From a virus (taxonomy: Duplodnaviria > Heunggongvirae > Uroviricota > Caudoviricetes), in the IMG/VR virus record IMGVR_UViG_3300045988_048025: a stretch of 44,090 nucleotides of DNA; one strand, given 5' to 3'. The translations under genes were made by a program, and so were the position numbers. Each line of letters opens with the position of its first letter. Positions within the stretch are counted from its first letter, which is position 1. The notes beneath the pieces were generated by a model. The model was not told the origin of the DNA. It did no database searches and saw only the letters and a list, made by a program, of their open reading frames with translations. This document shows, piece by piece, positions 3,464 through 20,376 of this stretch.

Positions 3464-5356
3464 ATGCTATTAACTTTAGCACCACAGGGTTTAACTATGA
3501 GCTTACTTACATCACTCATCAGCCATCAGATATGGCTGCAACGCACCGCATCCGGTGAGGTGAAAGACCTCGCACCGTTCATTAAGGAGATGCGGGATGA
3601 AATAAAACGGCAGGTGCTGTTATTCGGTGATGACGGGCGGAGCACTGCGCGACTGAATAAACTGTTACTCGACCTTGAAGAAGCGCTAACCGGACTTACC
3701 GGCGATTGGCAAACAAAGCTGACAGAAGACCTTAAGGAACTGGCGGCATACGAGGCTGAGTGGAACGTAAAGACACTAACCGCCAACGTTAACGCGGAAT
3801 TTGTTACGCCTACCGCCGAACAGGTGTGGGCCGCCGCCGATTTTCAGCCATTATCGTTAAACGACAAGCCTGTTGACTTCACTAAATTGATGTCTGGTTG
3901 GGGTGAAACCGAAGTCGCCCGCCTCGTAACTGGAGTTAAGATGGGCTTTGTACAAGGTCAAACCACACGGCAGATTGTTAAGAATGTCGTAGGCTCTGGT
4001 GGGCTGGCCGACATCTCAGAACGTAACGCGGCTACAGTAATCCGCACCGCGCTGTCTCATGTATCCAACGAAGCCCGTAACGAGACGTACCGCCAGAACG
4101 ACGACATCATCGAGAAATACGAGTGGGTATCAACGCTGGACAGCCGTACCAGTACGATTTGCAGAGCCAGAGACAGGATGACGTGGGAAATCGGTAAAGG
4201 GCCGATGCCTCCGGCCCATCATAATTGCTTACTTGGGGATACTGTAGTATCTACCGGTAGTCCGGTTTCTAACATTTTTAAACGGGCGTACAAAGGCACT
4301 ATAGTCTATGTCTCTACAAGGTCCGGTCGCACCTTGTCTATCACCCCAAACCACCAGGTATTGACTACCAATGGTTGGGTTGCTTCCGGCCTTCTCAATG
4401 TAGGCGACAAGCTCGTGTGCGCTAAGGACTCTGCGCTCTCTCTCAAGCATAAGGAACACAACGTTGTAGCCAAGTTCTCCGATTTGTTTAGTGCGGCTAA
4501 TGTAGCGGTCAATCCTGCGGCGGTCCGTACAAGCCCAACCACCACCGAAGACTTCCACGGCGACGGAACCGACGGCGAAGTCGAGATTGTACTTGTCAAC
4601 CGCCTTTCCTGGGATAAAGTCAAGTCCGGACTGAATAAGCAAATCATTGACAAGGAACTCCCAGTGGCTTCCCGCATTTATGACTCCCTCTCTGGCTTTG
4701 GCTCTGCGAAGCAGTTCAGCATGGTCGGCCTTTCTCCCTCGGACAGCTTCATGCGCCGCGGCGGAGAGAGCGAGGCGCTCCTCGGGAGTAGCTTTAGCCA
4801 TTCTGATAAACATAGCGTCGCTGACACCGCGAATACTAACGCCGTTCTCTCTGAGAACGCGTATGACTGGGTTACACGAAACGCCGATAATCTTTCCGAT
4901 TTCAACTGGTCCGATGCCGTCGGTATAGAGCTTGATGATGTTGTCGATTTGGTCTTTAGTGAAGCTGATTTTTGCGGGCATGTTTATAACCTCGAAAATG
5001 AACAGAACTGGTATCTCGCAAATGGAATTATAGCACATAATTGTCGCTCAACAACCGCGCCAGTAATCAGTTCTGAGTTCGACTTCCTCGATAAAGGCGC
5101 AAAACGCGCGGCTAAGGGTGCGGACGGTGGTATGCAGGTAAGTGCAGACACCACCTATTATGAGTTCCTCAAACAACAACCTGCGTGGTTTCAGGACCAG
5201 GCGCTCGGCCCTGTTCGCGGTAAGATTTTCCGTAACAGCGGTATATCACCGGAAGAGTTTCGCGTAATATCTGTAGATGGTTTCGGGAATCCGCTCACGC
5301 TTAAGCAGATGGCGGAACTCGATAAACGTGTTGCTGATTATCTGAAAGGGGATTAA
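3464..5356 (+). CDS. Head morphogenesis protein (phage Mu F-like / SPP1 gp7-like) interrupted in frame by an intein-like element
   Basis: EWVSTLDSRTSTICRARD...PPAHHN then, after the insert, CRSTTAPV, which resembles the conserved H-x-N-C-R region of Mu F-like proteins; located after the portal. Alternative start ATG 3497. Confidence 0.75.
   Translation: MLLTLAPQGLTMSLLTSLISHQIWLQRTASGEVKDLAPFIKEMRDEIKRQVLLFGDDGRSTARLNKLLLDLEEALTGLTGDWQTKLTEDLKELAAYEAEWNVKTLTANVNAEFVTPTAEQVWAAADFQPLSLNDKPVDFTKLMSGWGETEVARLVTGVKMGFVQGQTTRQIVKNVVGSGGLADISERNAATVIRTALSHVSNEARNETYRQNDDIIEKYEWVSTLDSRTSTICRARDRMTWEIGKGPMPPAHHNCLLGDTVVSTGSPVSNIFKRAYKGTIVYVSTRSGRTLSITPNHQVLTTNGWVASGLLNVGDKLVCAKDSALSLKHKEHNVVAKFSDLFSAANVAVNPAAVRTSPTTTEDFHGDGTDGEVEIVLVNRLSWDKVKSGLNKQIIDKELPVASRIYDSLSGFGSAKQFSMVGLSPSDSFMRRGGESEALLGSSFSHSDKHSVADTANTNAVLSENAYDWVTRNADNLSDFNWSDAVGIELDDVVDLVFSEADFCGHVYNLENEQNWYLANGIIAHNCRSTTAPVISSEFDFLDKGAKRAAKGADGGMQVSADTTYYEFLKQQPAWFQDQALGPVRGKIFRNSGISPEEFRVISVDGFGNPLTLKQMAELDKRVADYLKGD
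4226..5041 (+). mobile_element. Intein-like in-frame insertion (272 codons)
   Basis: Begins with Cys (CLLGDTVVSTG, block A-like), contains ITPNHQVLTTNGW (block B-like TxxH), ends VYNLENEQNWYLANGIIAHN (block F/G-like, terminal HN) followed by +1 Cys; excision would restore HHN-CRST. Confidence 0.75.
4229..4981 (-). CDS. Antisense ORF nested in the intein: putative HTH plus PD-(D/E)xK (Vsr/DUF559-like) nuclease, candidate homing endonuclease
   Basis: ATG at 4981 with GAGG 8 nt upstream; HTH-like IDNIIKLYTDGIGPVEIGKIIGVSCNPVIRVLRENG; nuclease-like core YNLDFAVGSVAVEVFGGGW...DRRRIDRYISRTKQIGELGYNVVFL; protein-like composition while the sense strand here is Ser-rich linker. Track ORF is 4229..5038. 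Confidence 0.4.
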   Translation of the reverse strand: MPAKISFTKDQIDNIIKLYTDGIGPVEIGKIIGVSCNPVIRVLRENGVSIRGVSDAMFIRMAKATPEERLALSAAAHEAVRGRKADHAELLRRAKAREGVINAGSHWEFLVNDLLIQSGLDFIPGKAVDKYNLDFAVGSVAVEVFGGGWACTDRRRIDRYISRTKQIGELGYNVVFLMLERERRVLSAHELVAYIEKAGSNPTIGSQYLVVWGDRQGATGPCRDIDYSAFVRPFKNVRNRTTGRYYSIPK

Positions 5357-5817
5357 TGATGGGCTTTTTCAAAGTAACTGATGTGCCGTCGCGTCGCGTA
5401 GTCCAGTACGCTCGTGTGTCTGGCTCCGGCGAGAACGTAACCTACGTTGAAGATGAAAGTGTACTAGGTACACCTGTAGACGAGATGCCGTACGCGGATA
5501 AAACCGGTATCGCACTCTCCGCGGCAGGTATGCTTTATGAAATTCCGTATCTGGCCGATGCTGGCGATGTGTATTTCTCCGTACAACCGCAAGGCACCGA
5601 ACTGGTGGACGGCAGCGCAATTATCACTGTTGAAGTTAAGGCGGGTAAAGCCCCGTACGCGCTGACCTGGTACAAAGACGGTAAGGAAGTTGTAAACGCC
5701 CCGGAAGAGGCCTCGTCACTGACGGTTAATGCGGTCGGTGAATACTTCGTTAAAGTTACTGATGCCGATGGGGTAGAGGCGGTGAGCAAGGCGGCGAAGG
5801 TCACTAAACCAGAATGA
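5356..5817 (+). CDS. Virion-associated protein with C-terminal Ig-like domain (putative)
   Basis: Start overlaps the upstream stop (TAATG); C-terminal YALTWYKDGKEV...VGEYFVKVTDADG resembles Ig-like domains of phage decoration proteins. Confidence 0.5.
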   Translation: MMGFFKVTDVPSRRVVQYARVSGSGENVTYVEDESVLGTPVDEMPYADKTGIALSAAGMLYEIPYLADAGDVYFSVQPQGTELVDGSAIITVEVKAGKAPYALTWYKDGKEVVNAPEEASSLTVNAVGEYFVKVTDADGVEAVSKAAKVTKPE

Positions 5818-5820
5818 TAA

Positions 5821-5840
5821 AAGGCCCCTTACGGGGCCTT
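5821..5840. terminator. Hairpin terminator between convergent genes
   Basis: aaggcccc-ttac-ggggcctt, between the + gene ending at 5817 and the - gene ending at 5845. Confidence 0.55.
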
Positions 5841-5844
5841 AGTT

Positions 5845-6096
5845 TCAATACCCAGTCTCTTGGGTTAAGTTAATCTCTTTATTCCAGACGTTTTGGTTAT
5901 ACTTTTCACGAATCTGGCGCATACTTCTACCGAGCGCGGCGGATAGAGACATATCCCCGTCTTCTTGCGCGTCCAGTTGCATCTGCTGAAGCTCAATATA
6001 CGCCGAAATATCGCCGCGTAATTCAGCCTGTTCATACTCTTTTTTAAGAAAGGAACCAAGGTCCTGTACACGATGTTTTGCTGGTTTCGTAATCAT
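5845..6096 (-). CDS. Hypothetical protein (83 aa)
   Basis: ORF on the - strand with its own upstream promoter motif; no recognisable domain. Confidence 0.5.
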   Translation of the reverse strand: MITKPAKHRVQDLGSFLKKEYEQAELRGDISAYIELQQMQLDAQEDGDMSLSAALGRSMRQIREKYNQNVWNKEINLTQETGY

Positions 6097-6969: not shown

Positions 6970-7007
6970 TTGCCTTAGTAAGTGGAATAATTTATTCTTG
7001 ACATGTA

Positions 7008-7026
7008 AATCCGGGTGGCCCGGATT
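7008..7026 (+). promoter_or_regulatory. Perfect 8-bp-arm hairpin just upstream of the scaffold gene
   Basis: aatccggg-tgg-cccggatt, with TTGACA at 6998..7003 immediately upstream and no matching -10. Confidence 0.25.
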
Positions 7027-7051
7027 CCAACGTCCAGGGGACATACTGACT

Positions 7052-7756
7052 ATGAATCGTTTTTTACGTTATCCGTTCCAGGAAGAAGCTGGGGTAGAAG
7101 ATAAATCTGGTGGCGGTGACGCGCCGAAAATGTTCACAGCCGAAGAAGTTCAGGCGCTGATTGAGAAAGAAGTCGCCGGGCTTAAGGCCAATCAGGAAGC
7201 ATTGCTGGCGGAGAAGAAAGAAGCCGCTCGTAAAGCAAAAGAGGCCGAAGAAGAACGGCAGCGTGCCCACCAGGAGGCGTTAAAAGCCGCTGGTAAGATG
7301 GACGAGTTTGAAAAGACGATTCGTAGCCAGTATGACCCGGTGTTAGCCGAGAAAGATGGTCGCATCTCCAGAATGGCAGAGCGCATCCTCGGCAGCGAAC
7401 GTAAAGCGGTGTTAGGCTCTTTCGCGGGCGACTTTATCACCCCGGAAGCAGTAGACATTCTTGCGCCGTTCGTCAAGACTGAGTTTGAAGGCGATGATGT
7501 GGTTACTAAGTTTGTTGGCGCAGATGGCAACGTAATCACGACTGACCCGGAACAGTTCCGCAAATACCTGCGCGAACACAAAGCGTTTTCGCATTTGATT
7601 AAAGCAAATGCAGCTTCCGGCGGCGGGGCTTCCGGTAGCAAAGGCGGCGGGGCCGCACCAGCGTTTAAAGACATGAGTGAAGCGGAGCGTATCGCTCTGT
7701 ACGAATCGAACCCTGCCGAATTTGAACGGCAACTTAAAGCCCTGAGGAAAAAATAA
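7052..7756 (+). CDS. Scaffolding protein (putative)
   Basis: ATG 7052 with RBS cagggga; E/K/A-rich coiled-coil-like sequence; immediately precedes and overlaps the major capsid gene (TAATG). Confidence 0.55.
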   Translation: MNRFLRYPFQEEAGVEDKSGGGDAPKMFTAEEVQALIEKEVAGLKANQEALLAEKKEAARKAKEAEEERQRAHQEALKAAGKMDEFEKTIRSQYDPVLAEKDGRISRMAERILGSERKAVLGSFAGDFITPEAVDILAPFVKTEFEGDDVVTKFVGADGNVITTDPEQFRKYLREHKAFSHLIKANAASGGGASGSKGGGAAPAFKDMSEAERIALYESNPAEFERQLKALRKK

Positions 7757-8805
7757 TGGCAATTACTACTATCGGCGACATCGTAACCGGTAAAGAATCG
7801 GTCATTCTGTCTTACATGACAGAAGACCCGGTAGAAAAAACTGCGTTCTTCCAGTCTGGTATCCTTACCCCGACTCCGTATGCCGCTGCTATCGCTAACG
7901 GCCCGTCTAACAAAGCTGTTCTGCCGTACTGGAAAGCGATTGATACCTCTATCGAGCCGAACTACTCGAACGACGTATACCAGGACGTCGCTACCCCGCG
8001 TAACGTGCAAACCGGTGAGATGGACGTTCGCGTAGCCTACCTGAACGAAGGCTTTGGACAGGCTGACCTGACTGTTGAACTGACCAGCCAGCAGCCGCTG
8101 CGCTCCGTAGCGTCCCGTCTGGATAACTTCTGGCAGCGCCAGGCACAACGTCGTCTGATTGCTACCGCGCTCGGCCTGTACAACGACAACGTAGCCGCTG
8201 ACGATGATTACCACAAGCAGAATGACATGGTTGTAGACGTGTCTGCTTCTCTGGGCTTCGACTCCGGCGCGTTTATCGACGCTACCCAGACTATGGGCGA
8301 TGCGCTGATGGGCAACGGTGGTGAAGTGCTGGGTGCTATTGCTATGCACAGCTTCGTTTATGCGCAGGCACGTAAGCAGCAGCTTATCGACTTCATCCGT
8401 GACGCCGACAATAACACCATGTTCGCCACCTACCAGGGCTATCGCGTGATTGTTGACGACAGCATGACCGTAGTTGGCTCCGGCGTCAGCCGTAAGTTCA
8501 TCTCCATCATCTTCGGCAACGGCGCTATCGGTTACGGTGAAGGTTCTCCGTCCAACCCGCTGGAATACGAGCGCGAAGCATCTCGCGGCAACGGCGGTGG
8601 TGTTGAAACCCTGTGGACCCGCAAGACCTGGTTGCTACATCCGTTTGGTTACAGCTTCACCAGCGCGGTAATCACCGGTAACGGTACTGAGACTACCCCG
8701 CGCTCTGCTTCATGGCAGGACCTGGCGAACGCCTCCAACTGGAATCGTGTTGTTGACCGTAAGCACGTACCGATTGCCTTCCTGGTAACTGGTGTCGGTG
8801 CTTAA
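7756..8805 (+). CDS. Major capsid protein
   Basis: 349-aa ORF after the scaffold with strong RBS and highly optimised codon usage; followed by a strong terminator. Confidence 0.7.
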   Translation: MAITTIGDIVTGKESVILSYMTEDPVEKTAFFQSGILTPTPYAAAIANGPSNKAVLPYWKAIDTSIEPNYSNDVYQDVATPRNVQTGEMDVRVAYLNEGFGQADLTVELTSQQPLRSVASRLDNFWQRQAQRRLIATALGLYNDNVAADDDYHKQNDMVVDVSASLGFDSGAFIDATQTMGDALMGNGGEVLGAIAMHSFVYAQARKQQLIDFIRDADNNTMFATYQGYRVIVDDSMTVVGSGVSRKFISIIFGNGAIGYGEGSPSNPLEYEREASRGNGGGVETLWTRKTWLLHPFGYSFTSAVITGNGTETTPRSASWQDLANASNWNRVVDRKHVPIAFLVTGVGA

Positions 8806-16266: not shown

Positions 16267-16631
16267 ACGCGTTGCTCCAGTTTGCCCGTTGGAACTTCAT
16301 AACCCGCCACAAACGGCGGGAGTTTGACAGTATCGCCGACGGGCATAAAGCCGCGCTAATTGCTATGGGGGTTATGCAAGACGCGCCGGAAGCAACGCAG
16401 GACACAGGGCCGGAATGCCCCCCTGAGCTATTAACCACCTTCGAGAAGTACAGGGAAATCAAATTCACCCGCCGAGTGGACGATGATGGCATCAAGATGT
16501 ACCCGCGCGAACAGTTAAGATGGTCGGATTTAGTGGCATACAGCACCGTTTCAGGCCAGAATATAGGCATGTTCGAATCTGACATCATCATGAGCTTAGA
16601 CGCTATTTTCGAGGGTAGAAACGATGGCTGA
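16239..16631 (+). CDS. -1 frame extension of the tail assembly chaperone (GT-like frameshift product), putative
   Basis: The -1 frame opens at 16239 (after a stop at 16236..16238) and overlaps the last 9 codons of 15850..16266; candidate slip site GGAAAAG at 16257..16263; ends overlapping the tape measure start. Confidence 0.4.
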   Translation, partial: TASPIAGKVDALLQFARWNFITRHKRREFDSIADGHKAALIAMGVMQDAPEATQDTGPECPPELLTTFEKYREIKFTRRVDDDGIKMYPREQLRWSDLVAYSTVSGQNIGMFESDIIMSLDAIFEGRNDG

Positions 16632-18960
16632 TGTAGCTAGTTTAGTTGTAAAAGTATCAGAGCAAGGCGCGAAAGCTACATCAGACCGTCTTGATAACCT
16701 TTCCAAGTCTGCAAAGGTAGCCGGAGCTGCGGTAGCGGGCCTCGCTTCCATCGTCGCCGCTACCGCGTACAAGGCCGCACAGGAACTGGTAGACTCCCAA
16801 CGGCAACTGGACAAGATGTCCGCCAGCCTGAAAACACTAACCGGAAGCACGCAGGGTGCAAGACAGGCGTTAAGCATCCTGCAAGACTTCGCGCGCGACA
16901 CCCCGTATGGTCTTGAACAGGCGGTAGAGGGATTCCGTAAACTGGTGGCTCTCGGCCTTACACCGTCAGAAGAAGCGTTGCGCTCCTATGGCAACACTGC
17001 CGCTGCTATGGGTAAAGACCTTAATCAGATGATTGAGGCCGTTGCGGACGCCAGTACATTTGAATTTGAGCGCCTTAAAGAATTCGGCATCAAGGCCAAG
17101 CAAAACAAAGACGATGTTGAATTTACATTCCAGGGCACCACTACGGTAGTTAAGAAGAGCGCTGCCGACATCGAGCAATACCTGCTCAACATTGGTAACG
17201 TAAACTTCGCGGGGGCTATGGCGGACCAGGCCAACACACTTAACGGGGCCATCGCCAGTGCCAGCGATTCCTGGTCGCAGTTAAAAATGACACTGGCTAC
17301 CAGCCTTGATGTTGGTGCTCTTGCGGAACCTATCCGGTACATCGATGATTTAATCCAGGAACTTAACGCACAGGTGGCATCCGGTGAACTCGCCGCCGAG
17401 ATGCGTATGTGGGGTGACATCGCATCAGAAGTGGGCAGCGCGATAGAGATGTCGTTCGACGCGGCATTTGGTTTCGTAGGCGACGCGATAAACGGGCTGA
17501 ATGAACTTTGGGATTTTAGCAGTAAAAGTATCACCGATAGCGGTGAACAAACGGCGACAACCATCGCGGAATCAGCCGCCGATGCACTCGATTTCATAGC
17601 GGAAGAATTTACCGCGATGGAGCGATTCTTTGAAGATATGGTTAAAGGGGCACAGGACGCTGGCCGGTTGGTGAAAGCTGCCTTCACACCAGGGGAATCC
17701 GTAGACGTAGCAAAAAACATTAACTTCCAGTTAGGGATGGCACTGGATACTCAGCGTGATGTTGCGGACCTGACCCGTAAAAGTTTCCGCGAACAGGTGG
17801 AGGCTCAGCAAAATATTGTCGCGCTTAAACGCGCGGCATATGACATCGACAAAGAAGCCGCTAAGGAAGAAGGTCTTAGTAAATTTAAGGTAACCGGTAC
17901 TGGTGGCGGATCCGAAGATGATAGCGCAGGTGCAAAAGCCGCTAAGAAAGCCGCAGATGCGTTCGAGCGCCAGAAGAAAGCCGCTGAGGATTTCTACTAC
18001 CAGTCGATTCATCTCAATGATGACGTATTCCAGAAAATAGAAGCCAACCAGGAACAGCAGCTAACCAAGCTACAGGAGTTTTACGGCAATCAGCTTCTTA
18101 GCGACCAGCAATACGAGAACGCTAAAACTCAGATTATGTTGGAGGCGGACACCGCTCGCCAGGAAGAACTCGCCAAGCGGGAGAAAGAACGACAGGAGAA
18201 GAACCAGAAAGGTGAAGACTTCATGGCTCAGATTATGGGTCAGAATGCCGCAGAGCTTGAGCTTCTGGAGATTCAGGAACAACAAAAACTTGACGTTGCA
18301 GACCGATATCGCGAACAGAACCTTATTAACGAGGAGCAGTACCAGGCTGCGGTTAATGCTATAAACGACCAGTATGCCTTGAAACGTGCCAACGCTACCG
18401 GTAACGCTTTCGGAATGATGGCGGATAATATTAAATCGTCGCTTGGCGAAGCGTCTACCGCTTATAAAGCGTTTGCTATCGCCCAGGCCACCATCGCCAC
18501 ATACACATCCGCCATCGAGGCTTATAAATCTGCGTCCGCGATTCCTTTTGTTGGTTGGATACTTGGGCCGATAGCAGCAGCTACAGCGGTAGCGGCAGGT
18601 CTCGCTAACATCAGCAAGATTCGTTCGGCCCGTGAACAGGGTGGTAACTTAGCTGCCGGGCAGCTATCCACCATTGCAGAACGTAACAAGCCCGAAGTTA
18701 TTATGCCGGCAGGTGCGTCACGCGTCCGTACCGCAGAACAGATGCGCCAGATTATGGGCGAGAACGGCAACAAGTCAGGCGGTGACAGCGTGACAATCGT
18801 CAACAACACCACCGGACGAGTTGATTCCGCCGTTACAGAGCGTGACGACGAAGGGCGGTTACGTGTTATCATCAGTGAAACAGTATCGGCGGCGTTACAA
18901 GACAGCAACAGTGCAATCTCCAAGTCCCGCCGGGCTACACGAAACCAGCCGGGGTATTAA
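16624..18960 (+). CDS. Tail tape measure protein
   Basis: 778 aa, Ala/Gln/Glu-rich and largely helical, Gly/Ala-rich hydrophobic segment near the C-terminus; sits after the chaperone pair. Confidence 0.8.
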   Translation: MADVASLVVKVSEQGAKATSDRLDNLSKSAKVAGAAVAGLASIVAATAYKAAQELVDSQRQLDKMSASLKTLTGSTQGARQALSILQDFARDTPYGLEQAVEGFRKLVALGLTPSEEALRSYGNTAAAMGKDLNQMIEAVADASTFEFERLKEFGIKAKQNKDDVEFTFQGTTTVVKKSAADIEQYLLNIGNVNFAGAMADQANTLNGAIASASDSWSQLKMTLATSLDVGALAEPIRYIDDLIQELNAQVASGELAAEMRMWGDIASEVGSAIEMSFDAAFGFVGDAINGLNELWDFSSKSITDSGEQTATTIAESAADALDFIAEEFTAMERFFEDMVKGAQDAGRLVKAAFTPGESVDVAKNINFQLGMALDTQRDVADLTRKSFREQVEAQQNIVALKRAAYDIDKEAAKEEGLSKFKVTGTGGGSEDDSAGAKAAKKAADAFERQKKAAEDFYYQSIHLNDDVFQKIEANQEQQLTKLQEFYGNQLLSDQQYENAKTQIMLEADTARQEELAKREKERQEKNQKGEDFMAQIMGQNAAELELLEIQEQQKLDVADRYREQNLINEEQYQAAVNAINDQYALKRANATGNAFGMMADNIKSSLGEASTAYKAFAIAQATIATYTSAIEAYKSASAIPFVGWILGPIAAATAVAAGLANISKIRSAREQGGNLAAGQLSTIAERNKPEVIMPAGASRVRTAEQMRQIMGENGNKSGGDSVTIVNNTTGRVDSAVTERDDEGRLRVIISETVSAALQDSNSAISKSRRATRNQPGY

Positions 18961-18963
18961 CCA

Positions 18964-20376
18964 ATGAGTGATTTGAGATTCCCTATGTCCCTTCGACCAA
19001 TAGTGTCGAAGGGGTACTCCCAAACGCGAGGGAGTAATATCTGGCGTACAGAAGTTCAGGGCGGTGTGCCTCGTCAGGGGCGTGATACATACTTCGAACC
19101 GGTGCCGATTAGCGTTACCCTGGTCGTATCATCGCTCGGTCGCCAGGCTTTCTATAGCTTCCTGAACAACATAGACGGCGGTGCGTCTTCATTTACCATG
19201 CCGCACGATACGGGTTTAGGTCTCGAAGACCACCAGGTACTTATTACGTCGGACATTAGCGATAGCACAGACGACGGCAAGAACTGGGTCATTACGTTTA
19301 CGGCTACAGCAGAGCGCACAGCAATTCAGGAAGACACATGTCTTACTAAGAATCTGCCAGATTTGTATGGTTGCTACGGGGATTGTCTGGGTAGTTTCCT
19401 GAAAATATACGCGAACTATGAGACTACGTTCCCGCGCATCTGGAGCGATGAAGGGCCCGCAGGATACCCGCCGATTAACCTTCTGGCGTCCGCCCTGGCT
19501 AGCCGCATTGTGTACGACGGGCCGCAGGTTTATTACATCAATCGCAACGGAAATCTTGTGCAGTCCGCCACTAATGAATGGCCTCTTACGTTTATTGATG
19601 GTGTTGCGGTTGGGCGTGTGCCGCCGGAAAATATGGCGGAAAATATTTTGCCGGATAGCCGTGATTTTAATGGCGCAAATTGGAATCTTCGCAGTAGGAT
19701 TATAACGACGCCAAATACTGATATGTTGTTTAACGGCGTTGAGTCTTCTTCTCTTATACCTACCACGGCGACAGGGTCGCACTATATAGGAGGTGCTATA
19801 CCATTAGCACCTATTGGCACAAAATTAACATGCTCTGTCATCGCCAAAGCAAACACGGCATCGACTCTGCAAACTCTATATTTTGGCGGATCAACTGGCG
19901 TCTCAGAATTGTACGCTAATTTTGACTTGGAAGCCGGGGTCGTTTCCGCAGGAAGTGCAGAGGATAAGTTAATATATCCTCTTGGTAATGGGTGGTACTA
20001 CTGTGCCATGTCGGTAGTTATTACCGGCGATATGTCGGTAAATAGACAATTCATAATATCTCCCGCGGCGTCTCCTTCATCTACAAGACTCGCCTCATTT
20101 ACAGGGGATGGCGTCCGCGGCATTTTAGTAGCACACTCACAAGTTGAAAAGTCAGAATTCTCCACATCCCCGATAGTAACAGAAGCATCGCCGGTGGCCA
20201 GACCTACAGCAACCGCAAAAGTAGTAATGAACGGTGCAACAAGCATTGATATTACATATTCAGACGGCTCTGTGGTAAACGTTCAAGCTGTTGATGATTA
20301 CGCCGCCATCCCCCGAGCGGATTCGGCGTGGGGCAGTAAATATATTACTCGTATTGATTTTAATGTGGACGGTTAA
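18964..20376 (+). CDS. Minor tail protein (distal tail protein-like N-terminus with C-terminal extension)
   Basis: Position directly after the tape measure; 470 aa. Confidence 0.45.
   Translation: MSDLRFPMSLRPIVSKGYSQTRGSNIWRTEVQGGVPRQGRDTYFEPVPISVTLVVSSLGRQAFYSFLNNIDGGASSFTMPHDTGLGLEDHQVLITSDISDSTDDGKNWVITFTATAERTAIQEDTCLTKNLPDLYGCYGDCLGSFLKIYANYETTFPRIWSDEGPAGYPPINLLASALASRIVYDGPQVYYINRNGNLVQSATNEWPLTFIDGVAVGRVPPENMAENILPDSRDFNGANWNLRSRIITTPNTDMLFNGVESSSLIPTTATGSHYIGGAIPLAPIGTKLTCSVIAKANTASTLQTLYFGGSTGVSELYANFDLEAGVVSAGSAEDKLIYPLGNGWYYCAMSVVITGDMSVNRQFIISPAASPSSTRLASFTGDGVRGILVAHSQVEKSEFSTSPIVTEASPVARPTATAKVVMNGATSIDITYSDGSVVNVQAVDDYAAIPRADSAWGSKYITRIDFNVDG

Follow-up and report, generated by a model that had tools for sequence, protein, structure and literature searches.

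A Vsr-like endonuclease gene on the strand opposite an intein in a head gene of a Guernseyvirinae phage

Introduction

Where is the mobility gene of an intein whose own strand encodes no recognisable endonuclease? In canonical inteins with LAGLIDADG or HNH enzymes, the Hint splicing domain is interrupted after block N4 by a mobility module, which lies in the same polypeptide and homes to a conserved site within an essential gene. We have considered this question for the IMG/VR virus record IMGVR_UViG_3300045988_048025, a stretch of 44,090 nucleotides from a Guernseyvirinae (Kagunavirus-like) siphophage, which was analysed as a whole and is called the window here. A Mu F-like head-morphogenesis gene of the window contains an intein that resembles the canonical ones in the interruption after N4 and in its site, and differs from them in that the endonuclease would be a separate polypeptide encoded by the other strand, in an open reading frame (ORF) of 250 codons. 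A first-pass annotation, made from the sequence without database searches, had interpreted the locus as a splicing element with an antisense mobility gene, and this interpretation is supported by selection, fold and conserved layout. The antisense ORF is a real gene, and we consider it probable that the locus is a two-strand mobile element, in which a sense-strand Hint domain is combined with a separately expressed antisense Vsr-like homing endonuclease.

The host gene and its intein

The precursor of the head-morphogenesis (minor capsid) protein is encoded at 3464-5356 on the plus strand by a single ORF of 630 codons, which is continuous through the element without a break of the host gene. 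Pfam assigns the product to Phage_Mu_F (2.7e-9) and Intein_splicing (4e-10). The intein-bearing gene is 94% identical to its counterpart in Escherichia phage Snoke, whose record names that counterpart "intein-containing capsid morphogenesis protein" and annotates no gene on the opposite strand. The longest sense ORF begins at ATG 3464; the start annotated for Snoke and most relatives is 33 nt further down, corresponding to ATG 3497 of the window.

The intein occupies 4226-5041 on the plus strand (272 codons), in agreement with the intein-like insertion of 816 bp reported in the first-pass annotation. It starts with CLLGDTVV, the codon of Cys1 being TGC at 4226-4228, and ends with GIIAHN, the terminal His-Asn being encoded at 5036-5041 and the +1 Cys at 5042-5044; the same boundaries are found in relatives. 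Intein_splicing matches the insertion with 40.2 and 42.8 bits (gathering cut-off, 35.8), and Phage_Mu_F matches the flanks. Hallmarks of a class 1 Hint domain are present (C1, T40-P-N-H43, H271-N272 and C+1), and in 55 lineages, dereplicated below 80% identity, C1, T40, H43 and N272 do not vary. Block F reads VYNLENEQNWYLANG; at the positions that we take, by intein motif nomenclature, to be those of the block-F Asp (VYDL) and His (HNF), most lineages have Asn and Trp. The kept catalytic residues and the viability of phages carrying the element suggest that the intein would be capable of protein splicing.

Three segments are distinguished on the sense strand. The N-terminal splicing segment (residues 1-66; 4226-4423) contains blocks A, B (with T40-P-N-H43) and N4, is delimited by identity, conservation and the ratio of nonsynonymous to synonymous substitution rates (dN/dS), and is dual-coded with the C-terminus of the endonuclease. 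The C-terminal splicing segment (residues 228-272; 4907-5041) contains block F (VYNLE) and block G (NGIIAHN); it is characterized by a low sense dN/dS, by sense identity exceeding antisense identity in residues 251-272, and by beta strands modelled at 224-247. The linker between them (residues 67-227; 4424-4906) is the complement of the endonuclease gene read through, as judged from dN/dS, conservation, model confidence and Ser content. As described in the first-pass annotation, this linker is rich in Ser (14% compared with 6% in exteins) and has no endonuclease match in Pfam. In an AlphaFold model of the sense intein built on a 10-sequence alignment, pLDDT (predicted local distance difference test score) is 61-75 for residues 21-67, 51-71 for the beta strands at 224-247, and 22-42 for residues 68-223. 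The last of these stretches, therefore, has no confident fold (pLDDT <50) at an alignment depth similar to that of the antisense model described below, and the search for a sense-strand endonuclease domain found none in either Pfam or this model.

The gene on the opposite strand

The minus-strand ORF extends in total over 4229-5038, and from its internal ATG at 4981-4979 it has 250 codons, ending with TAA at 4231-4229, opposite intein codon 2 (TTA, Leu). We therefore place the gene at 4229-4981 on the minus strand. The start, the length and the Shine-Dalgarno sequence GAGG 8 nt upstream all hold as first annotated. That annotation had set the gene in the centre of the intein; the gene does cover the centre but is not confined there, since it starts in block F, ends at codon 2 and is dual-coded with the N-terminal Hint segment (Hint-N). 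The two frames are codon-aligned, so that antisense position 3 coincides with sense position 1. In phage records PK1 and vB_StyS-sam the antisense ORF is annotated as hypothetical, and an exact look-up of the 250-aa protein and of a longer 269-aa form in the protein collection found neither.

In most lineages the antisense stop lies at intein codon 2; otherwise, it lies within codons 2-17 or beyond the intein in the extein. The endonuclease ORF thus always crosses the whole N-terminal splicing domain. A start codon directly before VYNL is kept in 50 of the 55 lineages (ATG in 41, GTG in 8 and TTG in 1, the complement of His or Gln). The 269-aa form, beginning at ATG 5038, was also considered as the conserved start and was rejected, because in many lineages antisense stops occur in the first 1-17 codons of the extension, while the start before VYNL is retained.

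Selection on the two frames

An antisense ORF may mirror a sense-coded domain without being coding itself, its homologues and its open frame reflecting only sense conservation and codon bias. The window lends some ground to this view: it contains further codon-aligned antisense runs that are free of stops (299, 218, 195 and 192 codons), as the first-pass annotation had cautioned, and ORF length alone therefore proves nothing. The distribution of substitutions between the two frames is more informative.

The gene was aligned without gaps among 11 related phages that contain the intein. In the middle of the intein (4406-4960, codons 61-245), the variable sites at sense codon positions 1, 2 and 3 number 50, 9 and 15, compared with 93, 53 and 258 in the exteins (Fisher p = 2e-14); the substitutions in mid-intein are clustered at sense position 1, which is the third position of the antisense frame. 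By the Nei-Gojobori method, dN/dS in this region is 1.48 for the sense and 0.11 for the antisense frame, whereas the exteins have values of 0.05-0.09 and 1.31-1.60, respectively. The corresponding values are 0.33 and 0.46 in Hint-N (4226-4405), and 0.06 and 1.23 in the C-terminal Hint segment (Hint-C, 4961-5041). The site pattern and the dN/dS values together show that the central part of the intein evolves like an ordinary protein-coding gene of the minus strand, and the purifying selection that the first-pass annotation had proposed to look for in the antisense frame is found there.

The same division is observed over larger distances. Among the 55 lineages, the higher identity is that of the antisense frame in residues 61-240 and that of the sense frame in residues 1-60 and 251-272, regardless of which frame is used for building the alignment. 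To obtain the conservation expected of a mirror, we resampled synonymous codons in one frame while excluding stops in the other (44-55 lineages). The ratio of observed to expected conservation in the exteins is 1.03 and 0.98 for antisense, and 2.02 and 1.82 for sense; in Hint-C, it is 1.10 for antisense and 2.12 for sense. In the middle of the intein the relation is reversed (antisense 1.92, sense 1.22), and in Hint-N both frames show an excess (antisense 1.43, sense 1.93). Because of this excess in both frames, Hint-N and the last 50 residues of the endonuclease are dual-coded, with selection acting on both proteins. At a finer scale, the sense ratio is about 1.0 (0.9-1.15) over residues 121-240, which means that this part is pure read-through.

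One sense block inside the linker departs from this pattern. The motif E-D-F-H-G-D-G (intein residues 108-114; 4547-4567 on the plus strand) lies opposite VAVEVF, a strand of the nuclease core, and the observed/expected ratio is 2.16 in a 12-codon block there. H111 is kept in 89, D113 in 90, G112 in 88 and G114 in 82 of 90 lineages. The codons of these four residues vary synonymously, and the opposite antisense residues vary as V/I or as P/S/A/T. This suggests a role of the sense protein beyond the needs of a minimal Hint fold; one idea is that the block may compensate for the block-F Asp and His, which are absent from this intein family.

Codon usage reflects the double constraint. Codons that create an antisense stop (sense TTA, CTA or TCA) occur once in the intein interior of the 55 lineages, compared with 299 expected from the usage of their own exteins (log10 P ~ -132); the endonuclease gene of the window has none, compared with 16 of 358 codons in its exteins. 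TTA, CTA and TCA are avoided by the endonuclease gene and by the intein alike, since selection keeps both frames open.

Distribution of the family

A database search with the antisense protein gave 14 homologues with 27-50% identity, about 98% coverage and E-values of 1e-53 to 1e-76, one of which is named very-short-patch-repair endonuclease by its source. Distant relatives of the sense intein have 27-32% identity and weaker scores (1e-18 to 1e-24), and this difference is the reverse of what a mirror of a sense-coded domain would give.

The following sources of sequences were surveyed for the layout. A pattern scan of IMG/VR gave 461 stretches confirmed by tblastn, 80 of which were examined as loci. 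GTDB gave 46 loci on bacterial contigs in a prophage-like context, belonging to Actinomycetota, Pseudomonadota, Bacteroidota, Chloroflexota, Gemmatimonadota, Cyanobacteriota and others. From GenBank, 106 phage records were obtained, with Salmonella, Gordonia, Klebsiella, Vibrio, Acinetobacter, Haemophilus/Aggregatibacter, Cronobacter, Edwardsiella and others as hosts; among the annotated GenBank matches listed, every one falls on a head or minor-capsid gene or on a hypothetical protein with no name.

Across the match, 92 of 93 phage and viral-contig loci and all 46 bacterial loci have an open sense frame, and in 138 of the 139 loci tested the homologue is codon-aligned opposite an open sense ORF. 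In the loci whose boundaries can be called, 89 viral and 36 bacterial, the site in the Mu F-like protein is the same, H-x-x/C ... HN/C, the slash marking the splice junction here and below. Endonuclease identity across the loci sharing this layout falls to 23-35%, and no free-standing member, or member in another host gene, turned up in these searches. A shortened copy was found in a Thiotrichales metagenome-assembled genome, where the intein has about 194 aa and the truncated antisense ORF matches endonuclease residues 119-248 only; this copy appears to be decaying.

Fold and family of the antisense protein

The AlphaFold2 model of the antisense protein, built from 13 sequences, has a mean pLDDT of 84.8 and consists of a helix-turn-helix (HTH) of three short helices (residues 9-45), followed by helical structure up to residue 96 and by an alpha/beta core. 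The HTH module at residues 8-45 (4847-4960 on the minus strand) is matched by HTH_7 over exactly these residues, with helices at 9-20, 25-32 and 36-45, which bears out the N-terminal HTH of the first-pass annotation. HTH_7, HTH_23 and HTH_28 are matched by 4-6 of the 13 family members. One to three copies of the HTH are present among relatives, and the homologues differ by insertions and deletions of whole modules in the antisense frame.

The nuclease core covers residues ~105-200 (4382-4669 on the minus strand). A Foldseek search of the PDB placed the catalytic domain of I-Bth0305I (3r3p) at the top, with probability 1.00 and a TM-score of 0.61, and also returned a DUF559-like Neisseria protein. 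The profile of the antisense family matched 3R3P with E = 1.2e-5, aligned over the nuclease core. Matches in BFVD are phage models named "DNA mismatch endonuclease", "NUMOD3", "DUF559" and "very-short-patch-repair endonuclease", the second match being a 266-aa entry of Bacillus-phage type, and REase_MTES_1575 is also matched by several family members. The Vsr/DUF559-type core proposed for the C-terminal part is thus recovered by profile and by fold, the two kinds of search suggested at first pass. The core is followed by a C-terminal tail (residues 201-250; 4232-4381 on the minus strand) opposite Hint-N, which is stop-free in all lineages, has antisense conservation of 1.2-1.76 times the mirror expectation, and is modelled as three strands with pLDDT 72-84.

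Invariant motifs of the antisense protein include E108, Y131-N132-x-D134, V142-E143, G146-G147 and W149, the core motif of the window reading V142-E143-V-F-G146-G147-x-W149. The conserved Glu at E108 is found in 86 and the metal-binding Asp at D134 in all of 90 lineages. D134 is aligned to the position of D196A in 3R3P (Vsr D51, I-Bth0305I D196), and E143 to the extra acidic residue of that family.

Assignment to a family required the family profile and the structure model; a single-sequence Pfam scan gave matches below threshold only, and a PHROGs scan with the antisense protein gave no family. A non-coding mirror would behave in the same manner in such scans. It would, on the other hand, leave no reason for the opposed dN/dS values in mid-intein, for substitutions piling up at sense position 1, for antisense conservation nearly twice the mirror expectation where the extein controls stay at 1.0, or for antisense-frame differences of entire HTH modules between homologues. 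Neither would it account for a confident antisense model, with a specific structural match to a homing endonuclease, opposite a sense linker with pLDDT below 50. We give the mirror explanation hardly any credence.

Proposed expression signals in the splicing blocks

The Shine-Dalgarno GAGG (4990-4993 on the minus strand) is the complement of the Asn-Leu codons of VYNLE in block F. Most of the 55 lineages have an equivalent GAGG, AAGG or GGAG that is correctly spaced from the start, and the Leu codon is CTC in 37 of them. The His codon before VYNL is CAT, the complement of ATG, 41 times, compared with 21 expected.

When the complement of block G was read, an extended -10 promoter-like element of the form TGnTATAAT was noticed, and codon choice was then tested. 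In the window this element, TGCTATAAT, lies at 5027-5035 on the minus strand, as the complement of the Ile-Ile-Ala codons. A perfect TATAAT is present in 19 of the 55 lineages, compared with 1.9 +/- 1.3 under synonymous resampling, and the TG extension in 20, compared with 6.6 +/- 2.2; the mean score of the -10 element is 4.80, compared with 3.79 +/- 0.07. If the element is real, it excludes the 269-codon form from ATG 5038.

These fixed positions bear on a second alternative, in which a free-standing endonuclease gene has recently landed backwards in a mini-intein by a transient accident and has not yet decayed, the two strands not being co-adapted. Free-standing Vsr-like homing endonuclease genes (HEGs) are described in PMC3239194 and in the accessible part of PMC2677866, and the invasion of inteins by free-standing homing endonucleases (HENs) is proposed as an origin in the accessible text of Gosselin et al. 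(10.1101/2025.01.02.630785). A recent accident is difficult to reconcile with a layout shared by IMG/VR, isolated-phage and bacterial loci of many phyla at the low endonuclease identities given above, with the failure of our searches to turn up a free-standing or other-host member, with start, Shine-Dalgarno, -10 element and stop at fixed positions of the splicing blocks, and with dual-frame selection on Hint-N and the FHGDG block. We regard it as very improbable.

Mobility and proposed mechanism

The uninterrupted allele is found in 145 phage records, in which PPAHPN/CRSTT runs straight across the junction. At the DNA level the intein-less junction reads CCAGCCCATCCTAAT/TGCCGAAGT, and CCAGCCCATCCTAAT/TGCCGAAGTACC in phages such as XY2 or Bas75; relative to these alleles, the insertion is precise and in frame. 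Among Escherichia phages, the intein is present in only 2 records, compared with about 100 without it. The Kagunavirus and Jerseyvirus carriers have inteins that are 94-99.9% identical while their N-exteins are 67-99% identical, and dS is 0.14 in the endonuclease gene compared with 0.83-1.25 in the exteins. This low divergence implies an intein that would be several-fold younger than the genes it occupies, as recent homing would lead one to expect.

Jerseyviruses also have a second, diverged form of the intein/endonuclease pair, found in the Salmonella phages SE1, TS6, vB_STM-ZS and SaI_NFG_5577. This allele is 75-79% identical to the window copy in the endonuclease and 62% in the sense intein, and the Hint parts are far better kept than the linker.

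We propose the following mechanism. On the plus strand, the Mu F-like precursor would be translated straight through the element; the Hint segments (residues ~1-66 and 228-272) would fold together and splice the exteins at HHN/CRS, and the ~160 intervening residues, the stop-free complement of the endonuclease gene, would be a tolerated loop with the exception of the FHGDG block. On the minus strand, a separate 250-aa protein would be produced, composed of an HTH at the N-terminus, a helical linker and a core of Vsr-like/EDxHD type. Its start codon would be the complement of the His codon before VYNLE and its ribosome-binding site that of the Asn-Leu codons, both in block F; the likely TGnTATAAT promoter element would lie opposite the Ile-Ile-Ala/Thr codons of block G, and the stop opposite intein codon 2, so that the last 50 residues would be dual-coded with Hint-N. 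In co-infection, the endonuclease would cut intein-less Mu F alleles at PPxHxN/CR(S or C), and repair of the cut would copy the whole element in, which is homing.

Several points weigh against this proposal. Residue 150 (4532-4534 on the minus strand), equivalent to Vsr H69 and I-Bth0305I H213, is Ala in the window, while 83 of 90 relatives have the general-base His; the window belongs to a His-less clade of 7 of the 90 lineages, with GGGW-A/S instead of GGxW-H. The H213A mutant of I-Bth0305I is inactive and its dimer is disrupted (PMC3239194). The alignment by hidden Markov model sets I-Bth0305I D222 (Vsr D97) near R159-Y160, the nearby D153 and D158 vary across the family, and placement of the second Asp is unsure. 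Gathering scores of Pfam are not reached for Vsr (PF03852), DUF559 (PF04480) or REase_MTES_1575 (PF18741): the window protein has 12.9 bits on MTES_1575 (cut-off, 38.2), and the best E-values of family members are 4.7e-5 (MTES_1575), 0.04 (Vsr) and 0.08 (DUF559). No clear co-conversion gradient is seen in the extein flanks. A generic sigma-70 scan upstream of the ATG reported no promoter; the TGnTATAAT element is a candidate promoter by its codon-choice statistics, and its -35 would fall in the extein. Disorder of the sense linker is only weakly supported, as the sense model is poor overall (mean pLDDT 40.7). Finally, the analysis shows selection at the protein level in the segment belonging to each frame, the fold, the deeply conserved layout and the recent horizontal spread of the intein, whereas transcription, translation, cleavage and splicing are inferred.

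Since its clade has Ala or Ser at the H213 position, the antisense protein of the window is here filed as Vsr-like and EDxHD-related, rather than as a proven active member of that family. Whether the His-less enzyme of this clade still cuts is the main uncertainty, and a third alternative arises from it: the protein may be real and yet have lost, in this clade, its activity as a homing endonuclease, being a DNA-binding or nicking derivative with another role (head-gene regulation, a maturase-like helper, or exclusion of elements), while the intein is spread by ordinary recombination. Such a derivative would fit the GGGW-A/S motif, which has lost the residue whose Ala mutant inactivates I-Bth0305I, the variation of the last acidic residue of EDxHD within the window clade, and the flanks without a clear gradient. 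Yet the antisense dN/dS of 0.11 within the clade, nuclease core included, means continuing selection, E108, D134 and E143 are kept, and an intein at least 94% identical across N-exteins of 67% identity, and rare in Escherichia phages, bears the signature of recent site-specific invasion. We therefore judge an inactive derivative unlikely and retain the antisense homing endonuclease as the probable reading.

A further-reaching proposal is tentative, and we lean slightly away from it. The two genes may be an ancient, obligately overlapped and co-evolved pair across bacterial phyla, in which ~95 codons would be dual-coded (Hint-N with the endonuclease tail, the start of Hint-C with the endonuclease N-terminus, and the FHGDG loop with the catalytic strand), promoter, ribosome-binding site, start and stop would be fixed in blocks G, F and A, and His111 and Asp113 would replace the block-F Asp and His in splicing catalysis.

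Comparison with known systems

The first-pass annotation had regarded an antisense nuclease in an intein as a distinct arrangement. It is not new: in the accessible text of their preprint, Gosselin, Arsenault & Gogarten (bioRxiv 10.1101/2025.01.02.630785) report contiguous inteins in actinophage minor-capsid genes that have VSR-like HENs in antisense. That text covers ~800 actinophage inteins, with LAGLIDADG or VSR-like HENs in antisense and an Endo VII-like HEN in another frame, and states that minor-capsid inteins carry non-canonical HENs only. It gives an HHpred match to 3R3P at E = 4.6e-5, describes the sense translation of non-canonical HEN regions as lacking recognisable structure, and places the antisense ORFs typically outside the splicing domain. 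As far as this account goes, the window element is alike in having a contiguous intein, a sense strand that is read through, an antisense VSR-like/EDxHD-like HEN and a minor-capsid (Mu F-like) host gene, and its sense linker without confident structure agrees with the preprint's statement. Homologues of the window protein in the Gordonia phages Vivi2, Angelicage, Fosterous, Malisha and Sampson lie opposite their head-morphogenesis genes and tie the window element to the preprint's set.

The window copy differs from the actinophage set in that it is found in a Guernseyvirinae coliphage and in Salmonella phages, and, relative to the accessible description, in that its ORF spans Hint-N entirely, with start, ribosome-binding site and -10 element in blocks F and G. 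The architecture is thus already known, and the element extends it into enterobacterial phages. The breadth over many phyla, the selection figures for each strand, the full overlap with Hint-N, the signals in blocks F and G, and the sense FHGDG go beyond what the accessible part of the preprint describes. The same text credits antisense LAGLIDADG HENs to Gorbalenya 1998 (Synechocystis DnaX and a Chloroflexus SpoVR-like protein); by that description, these are similar to the window in having an ORF opposite a contiguous intein and differ in endonuclease family and host genes.

Vsr-like endonuclease genes are also known between the halves of split inteins, where the host gene is broken in two (Dassa et al. 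2009, PMC2677866). In the accessible part of that paper, these fractured genes resemble the window in having a Vsr-like HEG at the usual HEN insertion point of phage genes, encoding a separate protein with short coding overlaps with an intein part, the endonuclease C-terminal coding region overlapping the downstream split-intein part by 6-69 bp. As described there, the HEG breaks the host frame, the intein is split, splicing is in trans, and the gene parts keep the parent orientation, whereas the window has an open host frame and a contiguous intein, the HEG being encoded by the opposite strand.

I-Bth0305I, the prototype of the EDxHD family (Taylor et al. 2011, PMC3239194; PDB 3R3P), is the best match by both profile and fold. 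It has the same order of an N-terminal HTH/NUMOD part and a C-terminal Vsr-like nuclease, and equivalents of its Glu, D196 and extra acidic residue (here E143) are present in the window protein. It differs in being encoded on the sense strand in a group I intron of a phage recA gene, in lacking the C-terminal tail, and in having H213 where the window has Ala. The intein in Mu F (gp30) of a Methylococcus capsulatus prophage was described without a recognisable endonuclease (Ward et al. 2004, PMC517821); it has the same kind of Mu F head-assembly host and looks as members of the present family do when the sense strand alone is read.

Other features of the window

Among the other antisense runs, that of 299 codons belongs to a 385-aa ORF at 7192-8349 on the minus strand, which is codon-aligned opposite a scaffold-like gene (6998-7756) and a capsid-like gene (7756-8805); it has a high content of Ser, Arg and Ala and the appearance of a mirror ORF. 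The other three runs, of 218, 195 and 192 codons, are situated opposite 674-1930, 18961-20373 and 16600-18957, respectively. A bidirectional terminator-like hairpin at 5821-5840 separates a Hoc-like decoration gene (5356-5817) from a minus-strand ORF at 5845-6096. The latter encodes 83 aa; its Snoke equivalent is a 522-nt "sliding clamp" gene, and its PK1 equivalent is named "endonuclease".

Implications

Inteins dismissed as mini-inteins or degenerate may in fact have full mobility, their endonuclease being concealed on the opposite strand. This endonuclease escapes gene callers and family libraries; it has no PHROGs family and is without annotation in most GenBank records. As a natural example of long antisense overlapping coding in bacterial viruses, the locus is among the clearest, with ~160 codons merely kept open and ~60-95 under selection for two proteins, and it is a useful test case for the evolution of dual coding and for the tools that detect it. 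The system is tractable, since the phages are easily grown on E. coli and Salmonella and many near-identical intein-less relatives, including phages of the BASEL collection, are at hand. Compact site-specific nucleases from this endonuclease family could extend the existing tools.

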